This document shows positions 4,888-17,396 of a stretch of DNA of 64,000 nt, piece by piece. The notes beneath the pieces were generated by a model, which worked only from the letters and a program-made list of their open reading frames with translations, ran no database searches and had not been told where the DNA came from. Origin of the DNA: Gammaproteobacteria bacterium (GTDB lineage Bacteria > Pseudomonadota > Gammaproteobacteria > Eutrophobiales > Eutrophobiaceae). The stretch's first letter is position 1; each line of letters starts with the position of its first letter. The position numbers were made by a program, and so were the translations under genes. The stretch covers positions 40,505 through 104,504 of the forward strand of contig JBFFIE010000002.1 in NCBI GenBank assembly GCA_041556555.1, written 5' to 3'.

Positions 4888-5817
4888 ATGTCTATAAACC
4901 GTATAAGAATCACGACGAGGGAAAGTCCCCTGGCCTTATGGCAGGCCGAGCATGTCCGGGCAGAGCTCATAAAGTGCCATACAGGACTTGAGGTCGAACT
5001 GATTGGTATCACTACCCAGGGGGATATCATTCTGGACAGGCCACTCATGGAAGTTGGCGGCAAGGGCCTGTTCATCAAGGAGCTGGAACAGGTGATGTTG
5101 GATGGAAATGCGGACATCGCAGTGCATTCCATGAAAGATGTCACTATTGATTTTCCACCTGGTTTGTCACTGCCTGTCATCATGCAGCGTGAAGACCCCC
5201 GGGATGTCCTGATATCAAATAAATATGATTCACTTGACGATTTGCCAGAAGGAGCCGTGATTGGCACATCAAGTCTGCGCAGGCAATGCCAGTTAAGGTC
5301 GCATCGCCCGGACTTCAGGATCACTACATTAAGGGGTAATGTTGGAACACGCCTGAGGAAGCTGGACGAGGGTCAGTACGATGCCATCGTCCTTGCCTCG
5401 GCTGGTGTTACAAGACTCGGTCTTACGGGGTTGGTAAAACAATATATTTCTGTGGATGTGATGCTTCCCGCAGTGGGCCAGGGGGCGATCGGTATCGAAA
5501 CGCGGTCTGATGATGAAGATGTTATTGCCTTAATCAGTCCGCTGTCAGATACCCTGACTACAACTCAAATGCGGGCAGAAAGGGCGTTCAGTAAAAAACT
5601 CTATGGCGGATGTCATTTGCCGATTGCTGCCCTTGCCACTATTGAGGCGGATACATTATCTATAAGCGGATTGGTCGGCGAAGTTGATGGCAGCAGGGTA
5701 ATCTCCGGCCATATTCAGGGTCCGGTGAAAGAAGCCGTTTCATTGGGCGAACAACTTGGAGAGAGCTTGCTGGAACAGGGAGCGGACGAAATTCTGCGCA
5801 AGCTGCTGAATGACTGA
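4888..5817 (+). CDS. hemC: Porphobilinogen deaminase (hydroxymethylbilane synthase)
   Basis: 309 aa. RIRITTRESPLALWQAEHV N-terminus and the cofactor-binding Cys region are typical of HemC. Confidence 0.95.
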   Translation: MSINRIRITTRESPLALWQAEHVRAELIKCHTGLEVELIGITTQGDIILDRPLMEVGGKGLFIKELEQVMLDGNADIAVHSMKDVTIDFPPGLSLPVIMQREDPRDVLISNKYDSLDDLPEGAVIGTSSLRRQCQLRSHRPDFRITTLRGNVGTRLRKLDEGQYDAIVLASAGVTRLGLTGLVKQYISVDVMLPAVGQGAIGIETRSDDEDVIALISPLSDTLTTTQMRAERAFSKKLYGGCHLPIAALATIEADTLSISGLVGEVDGSRVISGHIQGPVKEAVSLGEQLGESLLEQGADEILRKLLND

Positions 5818-6601
5818 AAGGCAGAGCGAATTCAAAGTCCTAGTTACCCGGCCGCAACACCAGGGGGAATCTCTATGCGCAGATATAGAGCGGATCGGAG
5901 CAAGGGCGATCAATTTTCCACTGATTGAAATAGTATCACTCACGGAGAACAGGGAAACAGTCAGGCATTTATCAGAAAATCCGGATTGCGATTTGCTGAT
6001 TTTTATCAGTCAAAATGCAGTTGCACATGCAGTCGATATGCTTGGCGGGGATATTTCCCATATTGCTGACCTGCCAATATATGCCATCGGTCAGGCCACC
6101 GCCAGAATGTTACATCAGGCCGGAATTAAGCAGGTCCATGCTCCAGCGACCGGGTCTGACAGTGAGTCACTGCTGAAGTTGCCCGATTTGCAGGCGAATC
6201 AGATAAACGCAAAAAAAATCACGATAATTCGCGGGCATGGCGGCAGGGAATACCTGGCGGATACGCTCAGGGAGCGGGGTGCAGAAGTGAATTATGTTGA
6301 AGTTTATCATCGCAAGCCTGCAGTTTATGATCAGGCTATGCTGGAAAAGATCTTTGGTGTCGACAAGCCTGATTTGATTGTCATTACCAGTGGCGAAAGT
6401 CTGCAAATCCTCTTTGATATGCTAATCTCCGGGGGAAAGCATGACATGCTGACTACACCACTGGTGCTGCTTGGAAAACGCATGTCGGAACTTGCAGATT
6501 CTCTCGGTTTTAGCGGGAAACGTTTAATAGCAGATGAAGCCAGTGACACCGGGTTGACAATAGCAGTCAAGAAGCTGATGGAGCTAACCAGAAATGAGTG
6601 A
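5810..6601 (+). CDS. hemD: Uroporphyrinogen-III synthase
   Basis: 263 aa. Overlaps hemC by 8 bp. HemD-like fold, second gene of the hemCDXY order. Confidence 0.85.
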   Translation: MTERQSEFKVLVTRPQHQGESLCADIERIGARAINFPLIEIVSLTENRETVRHLSENPDCDLLIFISQNAVAHAVDMLGGDISHIADLPIYAIGQATARMLHQAGIKQVHAPATGSDSESLLKLPDLQANQINAKKITIIRGHGGREYLADTLRERGAEVNYVEVYHRKPAVYDQAMLEKIFGVDKPDLIVITSGESLQILFDMLISGGKHDMLTTPLVLLGKRMSELADSLGFSGKRLIADEASDTGLTIAVKKLMELTRNE

Positions 6602-7658
6602 TGCAAATACAGAGAATAAGAAAGGCAATGAAATAAAGAAAGATCTGGTAAAAATACTCGATCCTAATTCTGCCGAAATGAGTAAACGTTTTGCTTTTCT
6701 GCTCAAGCTTGTAATCGGCCTCTTCCTGATCAGCATCATATTAATTTTGTCTGCCAGCTACTATATGCAACGTCAAATCCATGCGGTCTCGGATTCAATC
6801 AGTAGTAATGCTGATATGACAAGAGCAATAAACTCTGCGATTGAAAGCAATACAAAACAGCTTCGCTCAGAACTTGAGCAATTACGTATTCAGCAACTTG
6901 AACAGGGAAATTCTCTGGCCAGGCTCTACCAGAAGTTCCCCAAGGATAATCTCGAGTGGGCACTGGCCGAGACAGAATACCTTTTGATTATTGCCAGTCA
7001 GCGTCTGTTGCTGGAAAAAGATGTCGCCACGGCCATTGCCGCCATGACAGCTGCCGACAACAGACTGAAAGATCTCGGTGATCCGGCGCTGATACCGGTC
7101 AGAGAACAACTGGCTGCAGATATCAATGCATTACGGGCAGTAAACAATGTAGATACCAGTGGCCTGGCTATATACCTGGCAGATCTCATTGAGCGCTCGG
7201 ATTCTCTGCCTCTGAAAGCCATGAAACCTGATGCTGCTGCGAGCAACGGTGAAACCGATCAAACACAGGTGGAAGAAAGTCAGGATAAAAGCTGGCGTGA
7301 TATACCTGCAATCATCTGGAATGAGCTCAAGGGCCTGGTGGTAGTCAAACGCTCAGGCGAAACCCGCCAGGCCTTGTTATTGCCTGATCAGGAATACTTT
7401 CTTTATCAGAATCTGAGACTGGAACTTGAAAATGCACGGCTGGCAGTATTAAGACGTGATACTGATAACTTGCAAGCATCGGTCAGCCTGCTGCTTGCAT
7501 GGATACAGGAATATTTTGATCTGAGCAATGCTGCGGTCAGCAATATTGTGACCACCCTTGAAAAAATGCAAACACTGAAACTCGATCCGAAAATTCCTGA
7601 TATCAATTCATCGCTTGAAACACTCAGGGCGTTTATGCGTGAAGAAAATTCAGGCTAA
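6594..7658 (+). CDS. hemX: HemX-family membrane protein (putative uroporphyrinogen-III C-methyltransferase-like)
   Basis: 354 aa. Lys-rich N-terminus, one TM segment, long coiled-coil periplasmic part. Position between hemD and hemY. Confidence 0.75.
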   Translation: MSDANTENKKGNEIKKDLVKILDPNSAEMSKRFAFLLKLVIGLFLISIILILSASYYMQRQIHAVSDSISSNADMTRAINSAIESNTKQLRSELEQLRIQQLEQGNSLARLYQKFPKDNLEWALAETEYLLIIASQRLLLEKDVATAIAAMTAADNRLKDLGDPALIPVREQLAADINALRAVNNVDTSGLAIYLADLIERSDSLPLKAMKPDAAASNGETDQTQVEESQDKSWRDIPAIIWNELKGLVVVKRSGETRQALLLPDQEYFLYQNLRLELENARLAVLRRDTDNLQASVSLLLAWIQEYFDLSNAAVSNIVTTLEKMQTLKLDPKIPDINSSLETLRAFMREENSG

Positions 7659-7681
7659 ATTGAAAACGGTATAATCGACCA

Positions 7682-8908
7682 GTGAAACCTCTCATTGTAT
7701 TAATAATTGCACTGGCAATTGCCGCTGCAGTAGGCATGATCGCTGTCAGTGATTCCGCTAACATATACATCACGTTTTCAGACTGGACTATCCAGTCGTC
7801 CCTCGTGTTGTTCGTTATTATTATTATCCTTGCATTTATTGTTATCTATTTTTCATTACGCGCGTTATTCCGGATGTGGAATATGCCGGGAAATTTGCGG
7901 CGCTGGCGCAGACAAAGAAGTCAGCGTTTATCCGAGAGATATCTGAGTAAAGGCTTGCTGTCACTGGTTGAGGGAAACTGGAAATCAGCGGAAGCAAACC
8001 TGGTCAAGGGTGCGAAATATTCCGAAACGCCGTTAATTAATTACCTTTGTGCAGCGAGAGCAGCCCAGAGAGAAGGCCGTATAGATAAACGCGATCATTA
8101 CATCAGTCTGGCCCATGCCGATGCCCCCGATTCGCAGGTTGCCATTGGTCTGACTCAGGCAGAGTTACAGATTAACCAGAAGCAGACAGAGCAGGCACTG
8201 GCTACATTGATGAACCTGCATGAGCAGGAGCCTGACCATGGTCGTGTCAAGTTAATGCTATTAAAGACCTATACTGAACTTGAATCATGGCGGGAAGTCC
8301 TTGCCCTGTTACCTGGCCTGCAAAAATCGGGGTTACTGCCAAAGGAAAATATTGTGGCAACACAGCTCAAGGCCTATGCTGGCTTGATGAAAAAGGCGGG
8401 GACCCAGTCAGATAGGGAAGCCCTGGAGTCCATCTGGCAAAAAATCCCCAGGAACCTGAAAAAGGAATTGCACCTGCTTGAGGTCTATACGTCAGAAAAA
8501 ATAATTTTTAACGATACTGAGAACTGTGAACCTTTGCTTAGGAAGGCGCTTAAGGACAGATGGGATCAGAATATCCTTCGTTTATATGGTCTCGTTGAGG
8601 GGAAAGACGCTGCAAAACAACTGGCGTTTGCTGAAAGCCTATACTCAAGTCATGCACGTGATCCGGTTTTGTTACTGACGTTGGGGAGGTTGAGTATGCA
8701 AAATGGCTTGTGGGGCAAGGCAGCCAGCTACCTCAAGGACAGTATTCAAATAGAACCCTTGCCGGAAACCTACAGGGAGTTTGCCCGCTTGCTTGAGCGG
8801 CAGGGTGATTACGCTGCAGCATCAAGCTACTATCAACATGGTCTTGTACTTGCAACCACAACCCAGCAGGAACAGGCCAGGTTGATTGGCAGAGGTGAAA
8901 AACATTAA
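7682..8908 (+). CDS. hemY: HemY-family TPR membrane protein
   Basis: 408 aa, GTG start. Two N-terminal TM helices and a C-terminal TPR region. Fourth gene of the hemCDXY cluster. Confidence 0.75.
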   Translation: MKPLIVLIIALAIAAAVGMIAVSDSANIYITFSDWTIQSSLVLFVIIIILAFIVIYFSLRALFRMWNMPGNLRRWRRQRSQRLSERYLSKGLLSLVEGNWKSAEANLVKGAKYSETPLINYLCAARAAQREGRIDKRDHYISLAHADAPDSQVAIGLTQAELQINQKQTEQALATLMNLHEQEPDHGRVKLMLLKTYTELESWREVLALLPGLQKSGLLPKENIVATQLKAYAGLMKKAGTQSDREALESIWQKIPRNLKKELHLLEVYTSEKIIFNDTENCEPLLRKALKDRWDQNILRLYGLVEGKDAAKQLAFAESLYSSHARDPVLLLTLGRLSMQNGLWGKAASYLKDSIQIEPLPETYREFARLLERQGDYAAASSYYQHGLVLATTTQQEQARLIGRGEKH

Positions 8909-8914
8909 TGCTGG

Positions 8915-9943
8915 TTACTTGCCCCCGCTGGTCTGGGTGGCAAACTCAAATGAATCTGAATAAATAAATTCTTCTGACAGACCGCGTTCGGTGAAATTAT
9001 CAACCACTGCGTGGACCATGGGTGGTGGGCCGCAGGCATAGACTTCAAATGGCGAGAGATCGCTGAAATCATCCAGTACGGCCTCGTGGACCAGCCCGGT
9101 TCTGCCTTGCCAGGCATCGGATTGTCTGGGTTCCGAGAGAACTGGTATGTAGCGCAGAGTTTTCATCTTTATTGCCCAGGACTCAGCCAGTTCGTGGAGA
9201 TAAAGATCAGATTTTGAGCGGGCGCCCCAGTAAAAATGGATTTCCCGATCAAGCTTCTTGTGCTGAATGTTCTCAACGATACTTTTTACCGGGGCAAAAC
9301 CAGTGCCGCCCGCAATCATGATGATTGGCCGTGAAGATTCTTCCCTCAGGAAAAAGCTGCCCAAAGGGCCTTCAAATCTTAACAGGGATTTCTCCCTGAG
9401 CTTGTTGAATGCATATTCCGAGAATACGCCACCATCATAATGTCGGATATGTAATTCCAGGTAATTATCATCCTGCGGTGAATTGGCAAGGGAGAAAGAT
9501 CGACGTTTGTTTCCCTTCATCAGGATATCAATGTACTGGCCCGCCAGGAATTGCAGGCGCTCACTTGAGGGTAGTTTCAGGTAAAGTCTGAGTACGTCGT
9601 GGTTTAACTTTTCAATCTTGTTTACCCGGCAGGGCAACTTGCGGATTACCAAATCACCCACGGCCTCAATCTGGCGACATTCGATACGAAGATCAGTGCG
9701 GGGTATTGCCTGGCAAAACAGGGCGTAACCTGAGGACTTCTCTTCATCCGTGATACCAGTCAGGGGAATATCGGTATATTCAATCTGGCCCTCTAGCAGT
9801 TTTCCCTTACAGGTACCACAGGCACCATTTCTGCAGCCATAAGGCAATCCGATACCTTCGCGTAATGCCGCAGAAAGCACCGTCTCATCTTTTTCTGCAG
9901 TGAAGGATTTTTTATCAGGTTCGATAGTAATCTTGAAACTCAT
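8915..9943 (-). CDS. 2Fe-2S ferredoxin-fused FAD/NAD(P)-binding oxidoreductase (AscD / benzoate-dioxygenase-reductase-like)
   Basis: 342 aa. N-terminal plant-type ferredoxin motif CRNGACGTCKG...C, an RxYS-like FAD site (RSFSLANS), and GGTGFAP NAD(P) binding. Confidence 0.8.
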   Translation of the reverse strand: MSFKITIEPDKKSFTAEKDETVLSAALREGIGLPYGCRNGACGTCKGKLLEGQIEYTDIPLTGITDEEKSSGYALFCQAIPRTDLRIECRQIEAVGDLVIRKLPCRVNKIEKLNHDVLRLYLKLPSSERLQFLAGQYIDILMKGNKRRSFSLANSPQDDNYLELHIRHYDGGVFSEYAFNKLREKSLLRFEGPLGSFFLREESSRPIIMIAGGTGFAPVKSIVENIQHKKLDREIHFYWGARSKSDLYLHELAESWAIKMKTLRYIPVLSEPRQSDAWQGRTGLVHEAVLDDFSDLSPFEVYACGPPPMVHAVVDNFTERGLSEEFIYSDSFEFATQTSGGK

Positions 9944-9987
9944 GAATTATCCGGTTGATAAATAAAATCAGGTGATAACAGGATAGG

Positions 9988-10650
9988 TCAGTTTATGCTT
10001 GGAATGCTTCTGGCACTGCTCAACCAGGCAAGCAAGGGCATCCACTGTTCCCTGTCATACACTGTTTTTGACGGGGCCATTTCAAAAATAGTCATGCCCT
10101 TCTCTGCTGCATGAACGTAATTTTGACTGGCACGTAGCATGGTTATGTATGGGACCTTCGACCCATTAGGTAGTTTCAATGTTTCCAGATAGTATTCAAG
10201 TTTTACGCCTGATAATGTATCTTCCCTGACTCGGTTAGCTAAGGTTGCAAGCTTTACCTTGCGGTTGATCTCTCTTCTTTTCTCTATCAGTTCCCGTAAA
10301 AAACGTTCTGCCGCACGTACATCAATGGCAGAAGGCATCATCGGCATAACAATTGTCTGTGCGGCCCTGGTTATGCTCACCAGTTTTTTGTCATGAATTG
10401 CCGCCGGCGAATCAATCACCAGAATTTCGGTATCACGATTAATTTCCAGTTCGTTACTGTGCATTGCTGCCAGTTCAATCTTTGCCAGGTAATCGGGCCT
10501 TGCTGCCAACCAGTCAGTGCTGCTTCCCTGCGGATCACAGTCAGCCAGTGAAACCTTTTTTCCTTGCATGGCAAACCAGCCAGCTATATTGGTTGCCAGC
10601 GTGGTTTTACCGCAACCGCCCTTGGGGTTTAGTATCAAAATACTACGCAT
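9988..10650 (-). CDS. ParA/MinD-family P-loop ATPase (orphan, no parB partner visible)
   Basis: 220 aa. Deviant Walker A ILNPKGGCGKTT with the signature lysine; Walker B ILVIDSP. Confidence 0.85.
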   Translation of the reverse strand: MRSILILNPKGGCGKTTLATNIAGWFAMQGKKVSLADCDPQGSSTDWLAARPDYLAKIELAAMHSNELEINRDTEILVIDSPAAIHDKKLVSITRAAQTIVMPMMPSAIDVRAAERFLRELIEKRREINRKVKLATLANRVREDTLSGVKLEYYLETLKLPNGSKVPYITMLRASQNYVHAAEKGMTIFEMAPSKTVYDREQWMPLLAWLSSARSIPSIN

Positions 10651-10678
10651 GATTTGTTCTGTTGTTTAAATCTATTGT

Positions 10679-11557
10679 CTAGCCGCTTTCTCTCTTTTTT
10701 TCCATCAGGACGTGGATGAGCGGTCTCATGATGATTTGCATTGCAAAAAGATTTTTACCGGATGGTACCACGATGGTATTGGGACTCGACATGAACGAAC
10801 CACCTAGCATTTCCAGCAAGTAGCGGAAATCCACATTGATTTTTTCCAGGTTGCTGATGTGAATGATTGTATAACTCTGGTCGTTAGTCGGGATTTCCAG
10901 TGCTGCGAACGGGTTAGCCGTATCAACCGTCGGTACTCGTTGAAAATTAATATCCGTACGGGAAAACTGTGGTGTGATGTAATGTGTATAGTCATACATG
11001 CGGCTCAAAATCAAATGAGTTGCATCTTCTGCGCTGTAACCCCGAACTGCCTTGTCACGATGAATTTTCTGTATCCATTCAAGGTTGATAATTGGTGCGA
11101 CACCGATTAACAGATCTACATATTGGGCTACGTTAACTGTATCAGTCACCACGCCACCATGCAGGCCTTCGTAAAACAGCAGGTCGGTATTTTCCGGTAG
11201 TTGTTCCCAGGGGGTCAGTGATCCACGTGGTGAACCATGTTGTGCGGCCTCTTCCTCGTTGTGAATATAGTAGCGGCGTTTCCCGGTTCCAAATTCTGAA
11301 TATTCCCTGAACAGTGCTTCCAGTTCCTCGAACAGATTACCTTCTGGCCCAAAGTGCGTGACATTTCTTCCCTCTTTTTCCGCCGCTTCAACAATATCGT
11401 CCATTTCATGCCGGTTGTAGCGATGGAAACAATCGCCCTCGATAATCGCGGGCACAACTCCCTCGCGGCGAAAGATTTGCTCAAACGCCGCCTTGACGCT
11501 GGTTGTTCCGGCGCCGGAGGAACCGGTAACTGCTACAATCGGATGTTTTATAGACAT
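10679..11557 (-). CDS. prk: Phosphoribulokinase (Calvin-cycle)
   Basis: 292 aa. MSIKHPIVAVTGSSGAGTTSVK is the N-terminal P-loop of bacterial PRK (CbbP), with PRK-family motifs throughout. Confidence 0.95.
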   Translation of the reverse strand: MSIKHPIVAVTGSSGAGTTSVKAAFEQIFRREGVVPAIIEGDCFHRYNRHEMDDIVEAAEKEGRNVTHFGPEGNLFEELEALFREYSEFGTGKRRYYIHNEEEAAQHGSPRGSLTPWEQLPENTDLLFYEGLHGGVVTDTVNVAQYVDLLIGVAPIINLEWIQKIHRDKAVRGYSAEDATHLILSRMYDYTHYITPQFSRTDINFQRVPTVDTANPFAALEIPTNDQSYTIIHISNLEKINVDFRYLLEMLGGSFMSSPNTIVVPSGKNLFAMQIIMRPLIHVLMEKKRESG

Positions 11558-11702
11558 GAATGGTATTTTGTAGTTATTAACCCGGAAAATTCAGGGGCAA
11601 CATTGTAACAGTAACCCGTCCGGATTCAGTTACCAATTTGATAAAAAGCTAAAAAATACCCTCACTTATGGTTAAATAAGCTGTAAATTAGGGTTCAGAC
11701 TG

Positions 11703-13454
11703 ATGGAAAAACAGCCCAAAGATACACATTTATATCTGCGTTTATTGCGCTATGTTAGGCCTTATTGGCGGCTGTTTGTGATCTCCGTGTTGGCCATGAT
11801 CATTGTAGCTGCCACCGATCCGGCACTGGCTTCCCTGCTTAAACCCATGCTGGACGGCGCCTTTGTAGAAAAAGATCCGGAGACTATCCGGGTCATTCCC
11901 CTGTTCCTCATCGGTATTTTCCTGTTACGTGGTGTGGCGACGTTTATTGGTGGCGCATCCCTGCACTGGGTGGCTAATAAAGTCATCATGGATGTTCGCA
12001 ACGACATGTTCAATCGTCTGCTGATCCTGCCCAGCCACTACTATGATCAGCATAACAGTGGTGCCTTGATATCCCGGTTTACCTATGACGTGACTCAAAT
12101 CCGCGATGCCAGTACCTCGGCCATCACCATATCAATTCGTGACAGCCTTTCGGTGATTGGCCTGTTGGGCTGGATGCTTTATATCAACTGGAAACTGACC
12201 TTGCTGTGCCTGATATGTGCTCCGGTGATCACCTTCATTGTCAGCGTCATCAGAAAACGGTTACGGAAAATGGGGCGCAAGGTTCAGGCGTCCATGGGTG
12301 ATATTAATCACATACTTAATGAGTCAATCCAGAATCATAAGCTTGTTAAACTTTACAACGGACAGACACATGAGTCGCAACGTTTTTATGATGCCAATAA
12401 TAATAATCGTAAATTTATGATGAAGTTTGCCATAGCGGCCGTTGCCAGCAGCCCTTCGGTTCAATTGATAACCGCCGTTGTTCTGGCCCTTGTTGTTTAT
12501 ATAGCCACCTTGCAGGCATCCGCTGGCGCCATCACGGTCGGTGAATTCGGATCATTCATTGCTGCAATGGTCATGATCATGACCCCAGTGAAACGGCTGG
12601 TTGCCCTCAACGAACATTTACAGAAAGGGCTGGCTGCCTGCGAAAGTATTTTTGAATTGCTGGATCAACCACCGGAACAGGATGCCGGTTCCAGTCGTGC
12701 ACAGCGCATCAAGGGTGATATTGAATTCCGGGGGCTTTCATTTCGCTACAACCCGGATGATCGCAAGGCACTCAGTAATGTGTCCTTGCATATCCGGCCC
12801 GGCGAGAGTGTGGCCCTGGTCGGACAGTCCGGCAGTGGCAAGACCACTATTGCTAGTCTGATCCCGGCCTTTTACCCGGTCACCGAAGGTGAGATCCGGC
12901 TGGACGGTGTCGATATCAGGGACTACACGCTGGCGTCGTTGCGCGCCAACATTGCCCTGGTTAGTCAGGACGTGGCCCTGTTCAATGACACCTTGAGAAA
13001 CAATATTGCTTACGGCGGTATGAAAGATGCGACGGATGAGCAGGTCCGGCATGCGGCCGAAGTGGCCCATGCCTGGGAGTTTATTGAAAAGATGCCGGAG
13101 GGCCTGAATACCATCATCGGGGAAAAGGGGCAGCGACTTTCCGGCGGGCAGCGCCAGCGGCTGGCCATAGCGCGGGCGATACTCAAGGATGCTCCGGTCC
13201 TGATCCTGGACGAGGCCACCTCGTCACTGGACACCGAATCCGAGCACCATATTCAGGAGGCGCTCGATACGATTCGCCAAGGCCGGACCTGCATTATTAT
13301 TGCCCACCGCTTTTCAACAATTGAGAATGCTGATCGGATCCTGGTGATCGATCAGGGCCAGGTTGTTGAGGCCGGTACTCATGATGAACTGATTTCCAAT
13401 GAAGGCGTCTATGCGCGCCTGCACCGGACCAATTTCGCCGGTACCGTCCATTAG
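11703..13454 (+). CDS. msbA: Lipid A export ABC transporter (permease + ATPase), MsbA
   Basis: 583 aa. 6-TM N-terminal domain plus NBD with Walker A GQSGSGKTT, the ABC signature LSGGQRQR, and Walker B ILILDEATS. Confidence 0.9.
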   Translation: MEKQPKDTHLYLRLLRYVRPYWRLFVISVLAMIIVAATDPALASLLKPMLDGAFVEKDPETIRVIPLFLIGIFLLRGVATFIGGASLHWVANKVIMDVRNDMFNRLLILPSHYYDQHNSGALISRFTYDVTQIRDASTSAITISIRDSLSVIGLLGWMLYINWKLTLLCLICAPVITFIVSVIRKRLRKMGRKVQASMGDINHILNESIQNHKLVKLYNGQTHESQRFYDANNNNRKFMMKFAIAAVASSPSVQLITAVVLALVVYIATLQASAGAITVGEFGSFIAAMVMIMTPVKRLVALNEHLQKGLAACESIFELLDQPPEQDAGSSRAQRIKGDIEFRGLSFRYNPDDRKALSNVSLHIRPGESVALVGQSGSGKTTIASLIPAFYPVTEGEIRLDGVDIRDYTLASLRANIALVSQDVALFNDTLRNNIAYGGMKDATDEQVRHAAEVAHAWEFIEKMPEGLNTIIGEKGQRLSGGQRQRLAIARAILKDAPVLILDEATSSLDTESEHHIQEALDTIRQGRTCIIIAHRFSTIENADRILVIDQGQVVEAGTHDELISNEGVYARLHRTNFAGTVH

Positions 13455-13471: not shown

Positions 13472-15466
13472 TTAACTGGCTGCTGGCCGAAACCGCTTTA
13501 CGGATGTTTTTAATTCAGTAAGTTTGTCGGTTTTTGAGCCATAACGTACTTCAATGTAGAGCCGGGTAATCTCAGCAATCCTGCCGGCATAACGGTTGAG
13601 TTTCCGGCCGGCCCGGCGCGAGAAATCCAGTGGCCCCTCGTGCGGCAGGCGCCGGACTCCATGTTTTGCCAGCTTGCGGCAAAAGCGATCATAGAGCTGT
13701 CGGGACGGATCCCTGGCCCCGCGATAGTGGCGAAACAAACCAAAACTGATAACAGCCAGCATCAGGGCGACGGTGCCGACGATCCCCAGGATCAGTTTGG
13801 TTAACTCCTGTCGTTTCAGACCTATCTTTTTAAACAGGCTGTCCTGTCGCTGTGGCCCGTAGCTAATCACCCACTGGTTCCACTGGTTGTTAATGTTGTC
13901 CCAGGTATTACGCAGGTTTCGCCACAGGCTGCGGGTAAATTCGTTTCCGGAGAACACCACGGGTAAGTCAAATACGACATCGGGGAGTGCGTTTTCGATC
14001 CCCTGCTCTACTCGTGCCGGCGACACTGCCGTGGTGGGATCAATCCTGACCCAACCTTCCTCGGCGAGCCAGACTTCGGTCCAGGCATGGGCGTTGCGCT
14101 GATAGACGATGAAGTAATCACCGATTGGGTTATAGCTTCCGCCCTGGTAACCGGTGACGACCCGTGCCGGGATGCCGGCGGCCCGCATAATTACGGCAAA
14201 GGCTGATGCGTAGTGTTCACAGAAACCCTGACGGGTATCAAACAGGAAATCATCGACCGGGTCTCCGGGTAATGCAGGTGGAGACAAGGTGTAAATAAAA
14301 TGCTCCTCGGTGAACCAGCGCAGGGCGCGTGCAATCACTTCTGCCGGTGTCGATGCCTCCAGTGCCCATTGCTTGGCCAGCGCCCGGGTTTTCGGGTGAA
14401 AACCCCGGAACATTTGCAGGCTGCGTTGCAACTCACGCGGGCCGGAAGACGCCAGCCGGTAATCCTGAGTAGAAACGGCCGCATAACGGAAACGATTCTT
14501 GACCGGTTTACGGGTGAGCACCTGGTGAGCATCTGCCAGCATCGCCCGATCCGGGATCGCACTGGGCATCTCCAGGGTATAAAGCCAGCGCTGATTGGTG
14601 GGTTCCAGGGTAATAGTGTAGGCAATACTGTCGGCCGACTCTTGCAGTTTGGCAGGGGGGTCAAGATTGGTCAGTCGGCGCCGCCAGGCCCGGCCATCCA
14701 TGTAGGTAAGTACCGGCCCGCGCCAGTAAAGCGAAGATTTCGGTGGGGCATCAGCGTCCTTGAATTCAACCCGGAAAGCGATGTCATTCGACTGGATCAG
14801 GCGGCTGATGCTGCCGGGTGTCATGACATCGTCTACACCAATCAGGCCCCGAATGGCATCATCCGGCATGCCCCACAGCGGCCCATTAATACGTGGGAAC
14901 AGTAAAAACAGGATTAGCATTACCGGTAAAGCCTGACACAGGAGCTGCACAGCCATGGTAATCCGTTCGCTGGGCTTGAGGGTATGCTTTCTGTCATTAA
15001 AACTGATCAGTCCCGCGATGATGATCAGTAACGTGATCATCATATACACGGCTGTTAACAGGGTCTGGGAATAAAAGAAGTTGGTAATGATGATGAATAA
15101 TCCCAGGAAGGTTGAGATATAAAAATCCCGGCCGACATGTGATTCGAGTATTTTAAAGCCGGTTAACAGCAGCAAGAGGGCAGTACCGGCATCCCTGCCA
15201 ACCAGTGTCTGATAGTAAGCATGTATACCGATAACCCCGGCGAACATGAGGATAATACGGATTGCTCTCAGCCCCAGGTTGCCGCTGGCAGGTAGCGGCC
15301 AGCCCCAGACGGCGCAACCCAGACGCCAAGCGATGAGCAGAAAGGGACAAAGGATAAGCCACACCGGCGTATGCAGGGCGTGTGGCAGGATACTCATCCC
15401 GACTCCGGCCGTTAGCCAGTAAATTTCCTGTTTTCCCAGTTGCTGTGCCGGGTTACTTTCTGTCAT
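13472..15466 (-). CDS. Transglutaminase-like membrane protein TgpA (DUF3488 + transglutaminase core)
   Basis: Multi-TM N-terminal half and a transglutaminase-like Cys core, GFCEHYASAFAVIMRAAGIPARVVTGYQGG. Start set at MTESNPAQQ, overlapping the DUF58 gene by 14 bp (the ORF-track start at 15589 is read-through). Confidence 0.8.
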   Translation of the reverse strand: MTESNPAQQLGKQEIYWLTAGVGMSILPHALHTPVWLILCPFLLIAWRLGCAVWGWPLPASGNLGLRAIRIILMFAGVIGIHAYYQTLVGRDAGTALLLLLTGFKILESHVGRDFYISTFLGLFIIITNFFYSQTLLTAVYMMITLLIIIAGLISFNDRKHTLKPSERITMAVQLLCQALPVMLILFLLFPRINGPLWGMPDDAIRGLIGVDDVMTPGSISRLIQSNDIAFRVEFKDADAPPKSSLYWRGPVLTYMDGRAWRRRLTNLDPPAKLQESADSIAYTITLEPTNQRWLYTLEMPSAIPDRAMLADAHQVLTRKPVKNRFRYAAVSTQDYRLASSGPRELQRSLQMFRGFHPKTRALAKQWALEASTPAEVIARALRWFTEEHFIYTLSPPALPGDPVDDFLFDTRQGFCEHYASAFAVIMRAAGIPARVVTGYQGGSYNPIGDYFIVYQRNAHAWTEVWLAEEGWVRIDPTTAVSPARVEQGIENALPDVVFDLPVVFSGNEFTRSLWRNLRNTWDNINNQWNQWVISYGPQRQDSLFKKIGLKRQELTKLILGIVGTVALMLAVISFGLFRHYRGARDPSRQLYDRFCRKLAKHGVRRLPHEGPLDFSRRAGRKLNRYAGRIAEITRLYIEVRYGSKTDKLTELKTSVKRFRPAAS

Positions 15467-16439
15467 GCACAATCCCGAACAAGGCGAGGGCCGTGAGACA
15501 GGCCTCACGGTGGACCGGCCCATGACCGCTGGCGGATGAATATTCAGCCGGCAATACCAGGGAATATCTTCTGCCTGATCGATCCGCATCCAGCAGCCAA
15601 CGGCACAGCTGCGAGAGTTTCTCTTCCAAGGACAGGGCCTGAAGTCCCGGATCGTCCCAGCTCAGAATGAGTTCTTGATCACCACTGCCATCGAAGCGTT
15701 TGATTAACAGGGGTTGTTCCCTAGCCACCGCCTTCCAGGCAATGTTGCGGATGGAATCGCCGGGGTAATAGCGCCGAAACCCGGAAAAATCATGGTTGCC
15801 GTTGTCCATTCCTGCATCGCATTGAGCGCCACCGGCTTGTCCCGGTGGCAGAGGTAATGCCCCTATAGGCCGGGGATAGACAATACAGTGAAGGCCGGGA
15901 TCAAAGCTGGCCCAGGCACGAAACAGCCCCAGTGGATAATTGGTAAACAAGGTGACGCCAGGCAGGATCAGGCGTCCCCGTCGGGTTGGTAATATCGCGA
16001 GTTCCGCCTCGGTCCAGTGGTCGGCAGGGACATCCATTATGATGGGGGCTGGCAAACCCTCTGCGCTCGTCCCGCGAGCCTGGATCTGAATACCCAGCCG
16101 CTTCTGTGCGCCATGGTTATCCAGAATCAAGCGGAAGCGGGCCGGGTCACCGGCAAAAACCGGTTCCGGCATAACGCCCCGGATTACTAGGCCCCTGAGA
16201 TTACGGTAAGTATGAATCAGGGCGACCAGAAACAGACTGGCCAACAGGAACGTCAGCATAAACGCCATGTTGTTGTTGTAGTTGATGGCCCCCAGCAACA
16301 TAGTTAATAACAGGCAGGAAAAGAAGATACCTTGCCGGGAAGGTAGAATATAAACCCGCTGTTGTTTCAGGCCAGCATCCGATTCGACCCCGGGGGTTAT
16401 GGATTGATTCAGGCGTTCGAGGACGAAGGCGTCCGGCAT
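15453..16439 (-). CDS. DUF58 family protein (MoxR-associated, vWA-like)
   Basis: 328 aa. N-terminal TM hairpin, DUF58 architecture. Classic MoxR-DUF58-TgpA gene order. Confidence 0.8.
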   Translation of the reverse strand: MPDAFVLERLNQSITPGVESDAGLKQQRVYILPSRQGIFFSCLLLTMLLGAINYNNNMAFMLTFLLASLFLVALIHTYRNLRGLVIRGVMPEPVFAGDPARFRLILDNHGAQKRLGIQIQARGTSAEGLPAPIIMDVPADHWTEAELAILPTRRGRLILPGVTLFTNYPLGLFRAWASFDPGLHCIVYPRPIGALPLPPGQAGGAQCDAGMDNGNHDFSGFRRYYPGDSIRNIAWKAVAREQPLLIKRFDGSGDQELILSWDDPGLQALSLEEKLSQLCRWLLDADRSGRRYSLVLPAEYSSASGHGPVHREACLTALALFGIVHDRK

Positions 16440-16445
16440 GCCGTT

Positions 16446-17396
16446 TCAGGGAATGGGTACCCGTTTGATCAGCAGTACTGCCAGTTCCTCGGGTTGTCGG
16501 TCATTATCCTCGTGGCTACTGAGGCGGTGACTGATCACACTGGGTAAGATGGCCTGAATATGCTCCGGTAAGATTTGCCGGTGACCATCCATCAAGGCCC
16601 AGGCCCGGGCGGCGTGCAATACGGCCAGCCCGGCTCGAGGCGACAGGCCATGGCTGAATTCGTGACTTTTGCGACTGTATTCCAGCAAGTCTTGCAGGTA
16701 ATCCAGGATGGCCGGCGCCGCATGAATGTTATCGCAGAGGTACTGGATCTCGAGCAGGCGTTCGGGACTGATAACAGTGCCTACCTCCTTCAGCAGGATG
16801 CGCCGATCACGACCCATGAGCAATTCTCGTTCCGCCGCGTTATCGGGATAGCCCAGCTTGATGCGCATCATGAAACGGTCGAGCTGGGATTCCGGCAAGG
16901 GAAATGTCCCCACTTGGTTCGAGGGATTCTGGGTGGCGATGACAAAGAATGGTTGTGCCAATGCCCGGGTTTCCCCCTCCACGGTGACCTGCTCTTCTTC
17001 CATGGCTTCAAGCAGGGCACTCTGGGTCCTCGGTGTTGCCCGGTTTATCTCATCGGCCAGGATGATCTGGTTGAAGATCGGACCGGGATGAAATGTGAAC
17101 GACGACGTGTCCCGGCTGTAGACGGAAACCCCGAGTATATCGGCCGGCAGCAGGTCGCTGGTAAACTGGATCCTTTGAAAAGCCAGTCCCAGGATATTGG
17201 CGAGGACATGTGACAAGGTTGTCTTGCCAACACCCGGCAGGTCTTCGATCAGCAAATGCCCGCGGGCAAACAGGCAAGCAAGCGCCAGGCGAATGACATC
17301 GTCCTTGCCCAGGATGATCTGTCTGGCAGCATCGATAATGCAATCAATTTCTTCCTGGATGCCGGGTAACTGGAGTTTTTCACGAGCTGTGCTCAT
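16446..17396 (-). CDS. MoxR-family AAA+ ATPase
   Basis: 316 aa. Walker A GVGKTT, Walker B ILADEINRATPRTQSALLEAMEE. Confidence 0.9.
   Translation of the reverse strand: MSTAREKLQLPGIQEEIDCIIDAARQIILGKDDVIRLALACLFARGHLLIEDLPGVGKTTLSHVLANILGLAFQRIQFTSDLLPADILGVSVYSRDTSSFTFHPGPIFNQIILADEINRATPRTQSALLEAMEEEQVTVEGETRALAQPFFVIATQNPSNQVGTFPLPESQLDRFMMRIKLGYPDNAAERELLMGRDRRILLKEVGTVISPERLLEIQYLCDNIHAAPAILDYLQDLLEYSRKSHEFSHGLSPRAGLAVLHAARAWALMDGHRQILPEHIQAILPSVISHRLSSHEDNDRQPEELAVLLIKRVPIP

Follow-up and report, generated by a model that had tools for sequence, protein, structure and literature searches.

The window analysed here, a stretch of 64,000 nucleotides from a member of the Gammaproteobacteria (contig JBFFIE010000002.1), contains a ParA-like gene (10650..9988, minus strand; termed parA in the following) situated between the genes for a phosphoribulokinase (PRK, gene prk) and a flavin reductase-type oxidoreductase (fre). 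The 220-aa product belongs to an uncharacterised subfamily of ParF-like (type Ib) ParA/MinD-family ATPases that occur without a partner and are vertically inherited in Beta- and Gammaproteobacteria. The explanation we favour, and hold with moderate confidence, is that the protein is a partner-less ATPase of the positioning type and that its present gene neighbours reflect inherited synteny. The subfamily can now be delimited as small, ParF-like and strongly conserved, with a C-terminal tryptophan motif, and its hosts range from Acinetobacter and Ralstonia to marine methylotrophs that are uncultured.

Family assignment of the ParA-like ATPase

The translated sequence matches the Pfam families CbiA/ParA (PF01656, E 5e-16) and AAA_31 (E 3e-14) and, weakly, MipZ (E 6e-7, N-terminal part only), NifH and ArsA. 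Its deviant Walker A motif, K10-G-G-C-G-K15-T-T (10600..10623, minus strand), contains the signature lysine K10. Residues K10, G11, G12, G14, K15 and T17 as well as the Walker A' and Walker B aspartates D37, D39 and D80 are invariant in an alignment of 121 family sequences. An AlphaFold2 model built on the same 121 sequences reached a predicted local distance difference test (pLDDT) score of 92.3 and a predicted template modelling score of 0.91. Comparison of this model with the PDB yielded 339 matches at E<=0.001; the 50 that were listed are without exception ParA/MinD/NifH-class proteins. By its P-loop, its aspartates and its fold, the protein is a genuine member of the ParA/MinD (deviant Walker A, SIMIBI) group.

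Within this group, sequence and structure both point to ParF of plasmid TP228, which was the top match over the full length in a PDB profile search conducted with 13 orthologues (E 1e-17). With the model as the Foldseek query, ParF/TP228 ParA ranked first (template modelling score 0.75-0.81, 22-24% identity) and Soj second, while McdA from Cyanothece followed at rank 18 with 16% identity. The window ATPase and ParF (PDB 4dzz, 4e07, 5u1g) have in common a minimal fold of about 210 aa without an N-terminal DNA-binding domain and a KGGxGKTT motif with the signature lysine. Apart from the low identity, the window protein differs from ParF in being chromosomally encoded and vertically inherited and in possessing a C-terminal tryptophan motif of its own. 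The best NCBIfam model, type Ib ParA_partition (NF041546), is matched with 130.3 bits, below the cut-off of 180, and unlike the plasmid proteins covered by that model the window ATPase has neither an adjacent ParG/ParB gene nor centromere repeats. As the best match is ParF and the score for NF041546 stays under the cut-off, the protein is a minimal ParF-like ParA outside any curated functional family.

Chromosomal Soj/ParA proteins share the deviant Walker A motif with the window ATPase and form the second-best group of fold matches. However, they are longer (about 250-260 versus 220 aa), Soj aligns in the profile search over the P-loop region only (residues 2-53), and no parB is present in the window. 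The protein thus stands apart from chromosomal Soj/ParA, its nearest relatives in sequence and fold being of the type Ib ParF kind, so that a grouping with Soj/ParA, an objection which the preliminary description of the locus had itself named, does not apply. MinD is equally distinct: TIGR01968 has a cut-off of 212.9 bits, of which the window protein reaches 41, and a membrane-targeting tail is lacking. MipZ, PpfA, ParC, PldP and PomZ (reviewed in PMC11407121 and PMC10241942) resemble the window ATPase in working without ParB, with cargo that is unknown or not DNA, but the likeness is one at superfamily level only.

The subfamily signature Y198-DREQWMPLLAWL-210 (10021..10059, minus strand), of which D199, W203 and W209 are invariant in the A3 alignment, lies within the last helix of the model (residues 193-210, pLDDT 96-98) and is followed by the residues SSARSIPSIN. 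Since this helix is confidently modelled, it belongs to the fold rather than forming a free amphipathic membrane tail of the MinD type. A role as an iron-sulfur carrier of the Mrp/NBP35/NifH kind was also considered and rejected. The protein has no CxxC or Mrp/NBP35-type motif, and conservation of its cysteines does not reach beyond the core group. Within the 121-sequence alignment C13 is conserved to at least 90% and C38 to a lesser degree, whereas a wider alignment of 36 sequences keeps neither.

No partner is encoded in the vicinity. A ParB- or ParG-like open reading frame (ORF) does not fit into the 28-bp gap between prk and parA or into the 44-bp gap between parA and fre, and the region 8000-12500 contains no centromere-type array of direct or tandem repeats, its only repeats being pairs of 12-19 nt at chance level. 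Among the annotated ORFs of the window there is no match to the ParB family and neither minC nor minE, and the motif KGGxGK[ST] occurs a single time in the 64 kb, in parA itself. In full accordance with these motif, ORF and repeat searches, the preliminary description had recorded a ParA/MinD ATPase with the signature lysine and without local ParB or centromere; its same-strand trio of prk, parA and fre was recovered exactly, as consecutive ORFs on the minus strand.

By analogy with characterised relatives, two ATP-bound monomers would form a nucleotide-sandwich dimer via K10, and this dimer would dock on a matrix within the cell, most likely the nucleoid, because the protein is basic (isoelectric point 9.3) and has no MinD-type membrane tail. 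A separately encoded, unlinked partner would then trigger ATP hydrolysis, and the resulting ATPase cycle would serve to place some cargo in the cell.

When 5.8 billion proteins were searched, the top 120 matches were 62-99% identical to the window protein, 217-222 aa long and generically named. Among 1.84 billion representatives clustered at 50% identity, the core group makes up one cluster (396 bits), beyond which the representatives form a continuum that starts at 288, 265 and 264 bits and comprises 279 of them at E<1e-30. The members of the wider subfamily likewise carry generic names only, and those inspected keep the C-terminal pattern D-x-(E/Q)-x-W-x-P-(L/I)-x-x-W-(L/I), which is retained in Ralstonia and reduced to Q-W-x-P-L-L in Acinetobacter. 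Their hosts include Thiogranum longum, Sulfuricaulis, Kaarinaea lacus, Limnohabitans and other Burkholderiales, Ralstonia and Acinetobacter baumannii. Some hosts of the subfamily are in culture, among them Methylohalomonas lacus and Thiogranum longum as well as Acinetobacter and Ralstonia. Purifying selection keeps the ATPase tightly constrained: over 35 genomes its pairwise distances average 0.32, while the averages for MsbA, HemC and HemY are 0.38, 0.39 and 0.46. Our search of the literature found no paper that describes this subfamily or links a ParA to phosphoribulokinase. Several ParA/MinD ATPases are present in a third of bacteria, and many of them have no known cargo (PMC10241942). Note that one protein of the representative library (P0131, 256 aa) joins ParA-like residues 51-203 to what appears to be the start of the FAD-binding part of a reductase; a genuine fusion, a frameshift and an error of gene calling are all conceivable.

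Gene order in close and distant relatives

Gene-neighbourhood analysis is an accepted route to a cargo hypothesis for ParA/MinD ATPases (PMC11407121, PMC10241942). One genome per species was scanned for 185,579 species, 105 relatives were found, 80 loci were kept, and gene order in these was read by tblastn with the window proteins. Nearly all of the 80 loci stem from uncultured UBA4486-type Gammaproteobacteria, to which Methylohalomonas lacus is added, and their ParA orthologues are 50-79% identical to that of the window. The nearest relative is a near-identical metagenome-assembled genome (MAG; L074). Its parA was considered as a pseudogene and this was rejected, as the match is shortened by a stretch of N in the scaffold sequence.

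The majority order is tgpA, msbA (opposite strand), prk, parA, (fre) and hemY-hemX-hemD-hemC (opposite strand). In 74-75 of the 80 loci the gene immediately upstream of parA is prk, at a median distance of 63 bp (range -4 to 397); about 48 loci have fre after parA, the median gap there being 48 bp. Roughly one core locus in three lacks fre at the site and retains parA. parA is also kept at four sites that lack prk (L057, L061, L073, L080). The pair of prk and parA is intact despite broken flanking synteny in seven loci (L014, L045, L048, L051, L065, L066, L077). Because the whole 12-kb block, unrelated genes included, shows the same stability, the adjacency does not single out prk and on its own says little. 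Distance matrices for PRK, ParA, MsbA, HemC and HemY from the 35 genomes are correlated for every pair (r = 0.78-0.94), and partial correlations amount to 0.40 for PRK-ParA, 0.38 for MsbA-ParA and 0.61 for PRK-MsbA.

The history of the arrangement emerges from a sister clade of Thiogranum-like sulfur oxidisers. In the three loci examined (L081, Thiogranum longum; L085; L086), ParA is 47-50% identical to the window protein and the series parA-fre-hemYXDC is present, with a reductase that is 48-51% identical. The upstream gene is ubiD and not prk. Given that ubiD takes the place of prk in this clade, the parA-fre-hem block is older than the association with prk. The comparison of gene orders indicates that a rearrangement in a UBA4486-type ancestor joined msbA-prk to parA-fre-hemYXDC, the latter being the older block that would have had ubiD upstream, and parA would now be read through from the prk promoter. 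Neighbouring ubiD and fre genes, a pairing also known from E. coli, are widespread in Gammaproteobacteria.

Outside this arrangement the context of parA varies. In L087, ubiD precedes parA and the reductase is absent; a 290-aa ORF downstream of parA at this site, which has no Pfam domain, was considered as a partner and rejected, having no homologue in the other loci or the window. More distant members of the subfamily are monocistronic and located in unrelated contexts (L083, L088, L089 and L090); they comprise Sulfuricaulis-type and other members, which are 40-47% identical, and the Acinetobacter homologue. In none of the sister-clade and distant loci examined was a small same-strand partner gene seen downstream of parA. 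Across the subfamily, the analysis of neighbourhoods thus yielded no consistent cargo. Three further observations were made at these sites. An alpha-type carbonic anhydrase gene (PF00194) lies between ubiD and the ParA-like gene in L085 (5144-5902), a gene for an MlaC-domain protein occupies the same slot in L086, and in L088 the monocistronic ParA-like gene is followed by some 900 bp without a called gene (6646-7547).

In the window itself, prk is the upstream gene of the putative operon, and the 145-bp intergenic region between prk and the divergent msbA (11558..11702) is the presumed site of the promoter for prk-parA-(fre). A consensus scan detected no sigma-70-like site in this region or in the two downstream gaps, no intrinsic-terminator-like site was found between prk, parA and fre on the minus strand, and no Rfam element matches between the three genes. 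The signal-free gaps are compatible with co-transcription of prk, parA and fre, short of proof. As the gaps are short and no signals intervene, parA is probably expressed in this lineage from the msbA/prk intergenic promoter via read-through.

Proposed functional links of the ATPase to its neighbours

The reductase gene (9943..8915, minus strand) encodes a Fer2-FAD-NAD(P) oxidoreductase of the Fre/FNR type with 342 aa. The protein matches Fer2 (E 8e-19), FAD_binding_6 (E 1.5e-18) and NAD_binding_1 (E 3e-25), and its N-terminal plant-type 2Fe-2S domain has the cysteine pattern C37-x4-C42-x2-C45...C77. It scores below the NCBIfam cut-offs for Fre (NF005963, 214 versus 230) and BenC (221 versus 430). 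In principle, the ATPase could serve this reductase, UbiD and/or the Hem proteins by assembling or localising a quinone- or tetrapyrrole-related complex or by handing over a cofactor. Such a role would be in line with the sharing of parA-fre-hemYXDC by two clades whose ParA proteins have diverged to 47-50% identity, with ubiD upstream in one of them, with the widespread ubiD-fre adjacency and with the short median distance between parA and fre. On the other hand, parA stays where fre is missing, an opposite-strand epimerase gene splits the two in L081 and L086, distant members of the subfamily have none of these neighbours, and the ATPase lacks the cysteine motifs mentioned above. We therefore regard this role as unlikely.

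The second proposal concerns phosphoribulokinase. The prk gene (11557..10679, minus strand) encodes a 292-aa enzyme of the proteobacterial type with about 290 aa, which matches PF00485 (E 6e-64) and, over profile positions 1-288 of 290, the NCBIfam equivalog NF011997 (455.6 bits, cut-off 362). CbbP from Cupriavidus necator pHG1 and from Nitrobacter shares 60% identity with it. As an identity of about 60% to bona fide CbbP does not discriminate, a Calvin cycle enzyme and a 'heterotroph' PRK are not distinguished by this value. According to the proposal, the ATPase would position a PRK assembly or carboxysome-like cargo, or regulate PRK, in the manner of McdA. McdA (Cyanothece, PDB 6non/6nop; alpha-McdA of Halothiobacillus) belongs to the same superfamily and positions protein cargo without ParB, and the analogy with it rests on the adjoining carbon-metabolism gene. 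ParA-type genes often adjoin the genes for their cargo (PMC10241942), and prk is placed accordingly: it directly precedes parA on the same strand in nearly all loci and outlasts broken flanking synteny together with it, and the gap, just 28 bp in the window, holds no promoter- or terminator-like site.

These points are outweighed by others. msbA and hemYXDC are just as syntenic as prk, ubiD in the sister clade places parA before the association with prk, parA persists at four sites without prk, and the PRK-ParA distance correlation is no stronger than that between MsbA and ParA. At neither terminus does PRK carry an additional tail of the sort that might serve as a ParA-stimulating peptide. 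In fold, McdA is a distant relative surpassed by ParF and Soj, no McdB-like, carboxysome-operon or RuBisCO gene was noted in the window or near the 80 loci, and the host clade, unlike the hosts of McdA, is not known for carboxysomes. Searches by tblastn with CbbL, CbbS, CbbX, Rpe, FBPase, Tkt and Gph from the C. necator cbb operon were negative for the window and for every prk-parA locus with its flanks of about 6 kb, and prk of the window lies outside any cbb gene cluster. Family scans of the larger window ORFs named no cso or ccm shell gene, no tblastn search for cso/ccm having been made.

The literature on the host lineage agrees with this picture. One of the loci (L064, Ca. Eutrophobius) belongs to the GTDB order UBA4486, two others (L053, L059) are labelled UBA7359 and UBA7357, and GTDB places the genus UBA7359 in the order UBA4486. 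Members of UBA4486 ('Riflewellaceae') have been described as methanol-oxidising, sox-bearing and facultatively methylotrophic, and the UBA4486/UBA7359 lineage as methylotrophic or heterotrophic. Francis et al., whose gammaproteobacterial MAGs include UBA7359 genomes with up to 99% completeness, state that among these MAGs only Thioglobaceae have an autotrophy based on RuBisCO, and they did not identify a pathway for C1 assimilation in the clade. PRK has been reported for a sponge UBA4486 MAG, with RuBisCO named for another bin only. PRK is thus probably an 'orphan' in at least that part of the clade that is reported to lack RuBisCO. The enzyme is strongly conserved, with 63-90% identity across the clade (window; L053, L059, L064). 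A highly conserved PRK in a widespread clade described as devoid of RuBisCO is a modest lead in its own right. RuBisCO-large-chain-like ORFs were encountered beyond msbA at two of the sites where prk is absent and parA adjoins msbA (L057, 1-1278, and L061, 1827-3128, both minus strand). They are 23-25% identical to form I CbbL, with 69 bits for Pfam RuBisCO_large in L057, and probably represent form IV RuBisCO-like proteins. A gene for a two-domain protein of the glyoxalase/dioxygenase fold is also located just beyond msbA at both sites.

With no cbb context in the window and the loci and with ubiD in the place of prk in the sister clade, a connection to carbon fixation is unsupported, and nothing that we found ties the function of the ATPase to phosphoribulokinase or CO2 fixation. 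We judge it quite improbable that the ATPase acts on PRK or a carboxysome-like cargo. The preliminary description had raised a tie to CO2 fixation, which finds no support in view of the block-wide synteny; its companion suggestion, that the gene is an operon neighbour whose role is unrelated, fits better. This applies even though the ATPase is indeed kept in the prk neighbourhood of relatives, as that description had anticipated for a genuine link. The guess at a cargo from the neighbouring gene is probably an artefact of inherited synteny.

Some points weigh against a partner-less positioning ATPase with inherited neighbours and should be stated together. Only where prk itself has gone is its adjacency to parA broken, and the distance between the two is small, so that a functional coupling may have been derived within this clade; the absence of RuBisCO was established for the window, the 6-kb flanks and, in the literature, other members of the clade only; and cargo, partner and matrix of the ATPase are all proposed by analogy only. 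The UBA4486-type methylotroph clade might have recruited the ATPase into a two-gene module with its orphan PRK, to organise this enzyme spatially or ATP-gate it, or to do so for a ribulose-bisphosphate-dependent process that has escaped recognition, which we consider very unlikely. If true, no earlier ParA/MinD ATPase would be devoted to a soluble enzyme of central metabolism, and a specific interaction with PRK in these RuBisCO-poor methylotrophs would raise the interest of the system.

A decaying, functionless remnant of an integrated plasmid partition module, that is parA without parG/parB, would account for the type Ib ParA/ParF kinship, for the 31-36% identity to the most similar plasmid genes (31-35% where parG follows parA) and for the local lack of partner gene and centromere, but is extremely improbable for a protein that is more conserved than MsbA, HemC and HemY, has invariant catalytic motifs in 121 sequences, keeps its chromosomal position across order-level divergence, shows no break in G+C at its site and is truncated in L074 by nothing but a run of N.

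Surroundings of the locus

The genes hemC-hemD-hemX-hemY (4888..8908, plus strand) converge on the reductase gene and are part of the inherited syntenic block. On the other side, msbA, encoding the lipid A exporter (11703..13454, plus strand), is divergent from prk; its product matches TIGR02203 with 779.5 bits (cut-off 602). The other genes of the window have housekeeping functions and include pyrB/pyrR, gshB, uvrD, purEK, prlC and bfr as well as hemA-prfA-prmC, lolB-ispE-prs-rplY-ychF and trpCD. Upstream of msbA, a cluster on the minus strand (13472-17396) comprises genes for a TgpA-type transglutaminase (TgpA_N, Transglut_core, DUF4129) and a MoxR-type AAA_3 ATPase. The transglutaminase gene, whose synteny extends to many of the 80 loci, overlaps by 137 bp with a further member of the cluster, a 328-aa ORF without a Pfam or NCBIfam match.

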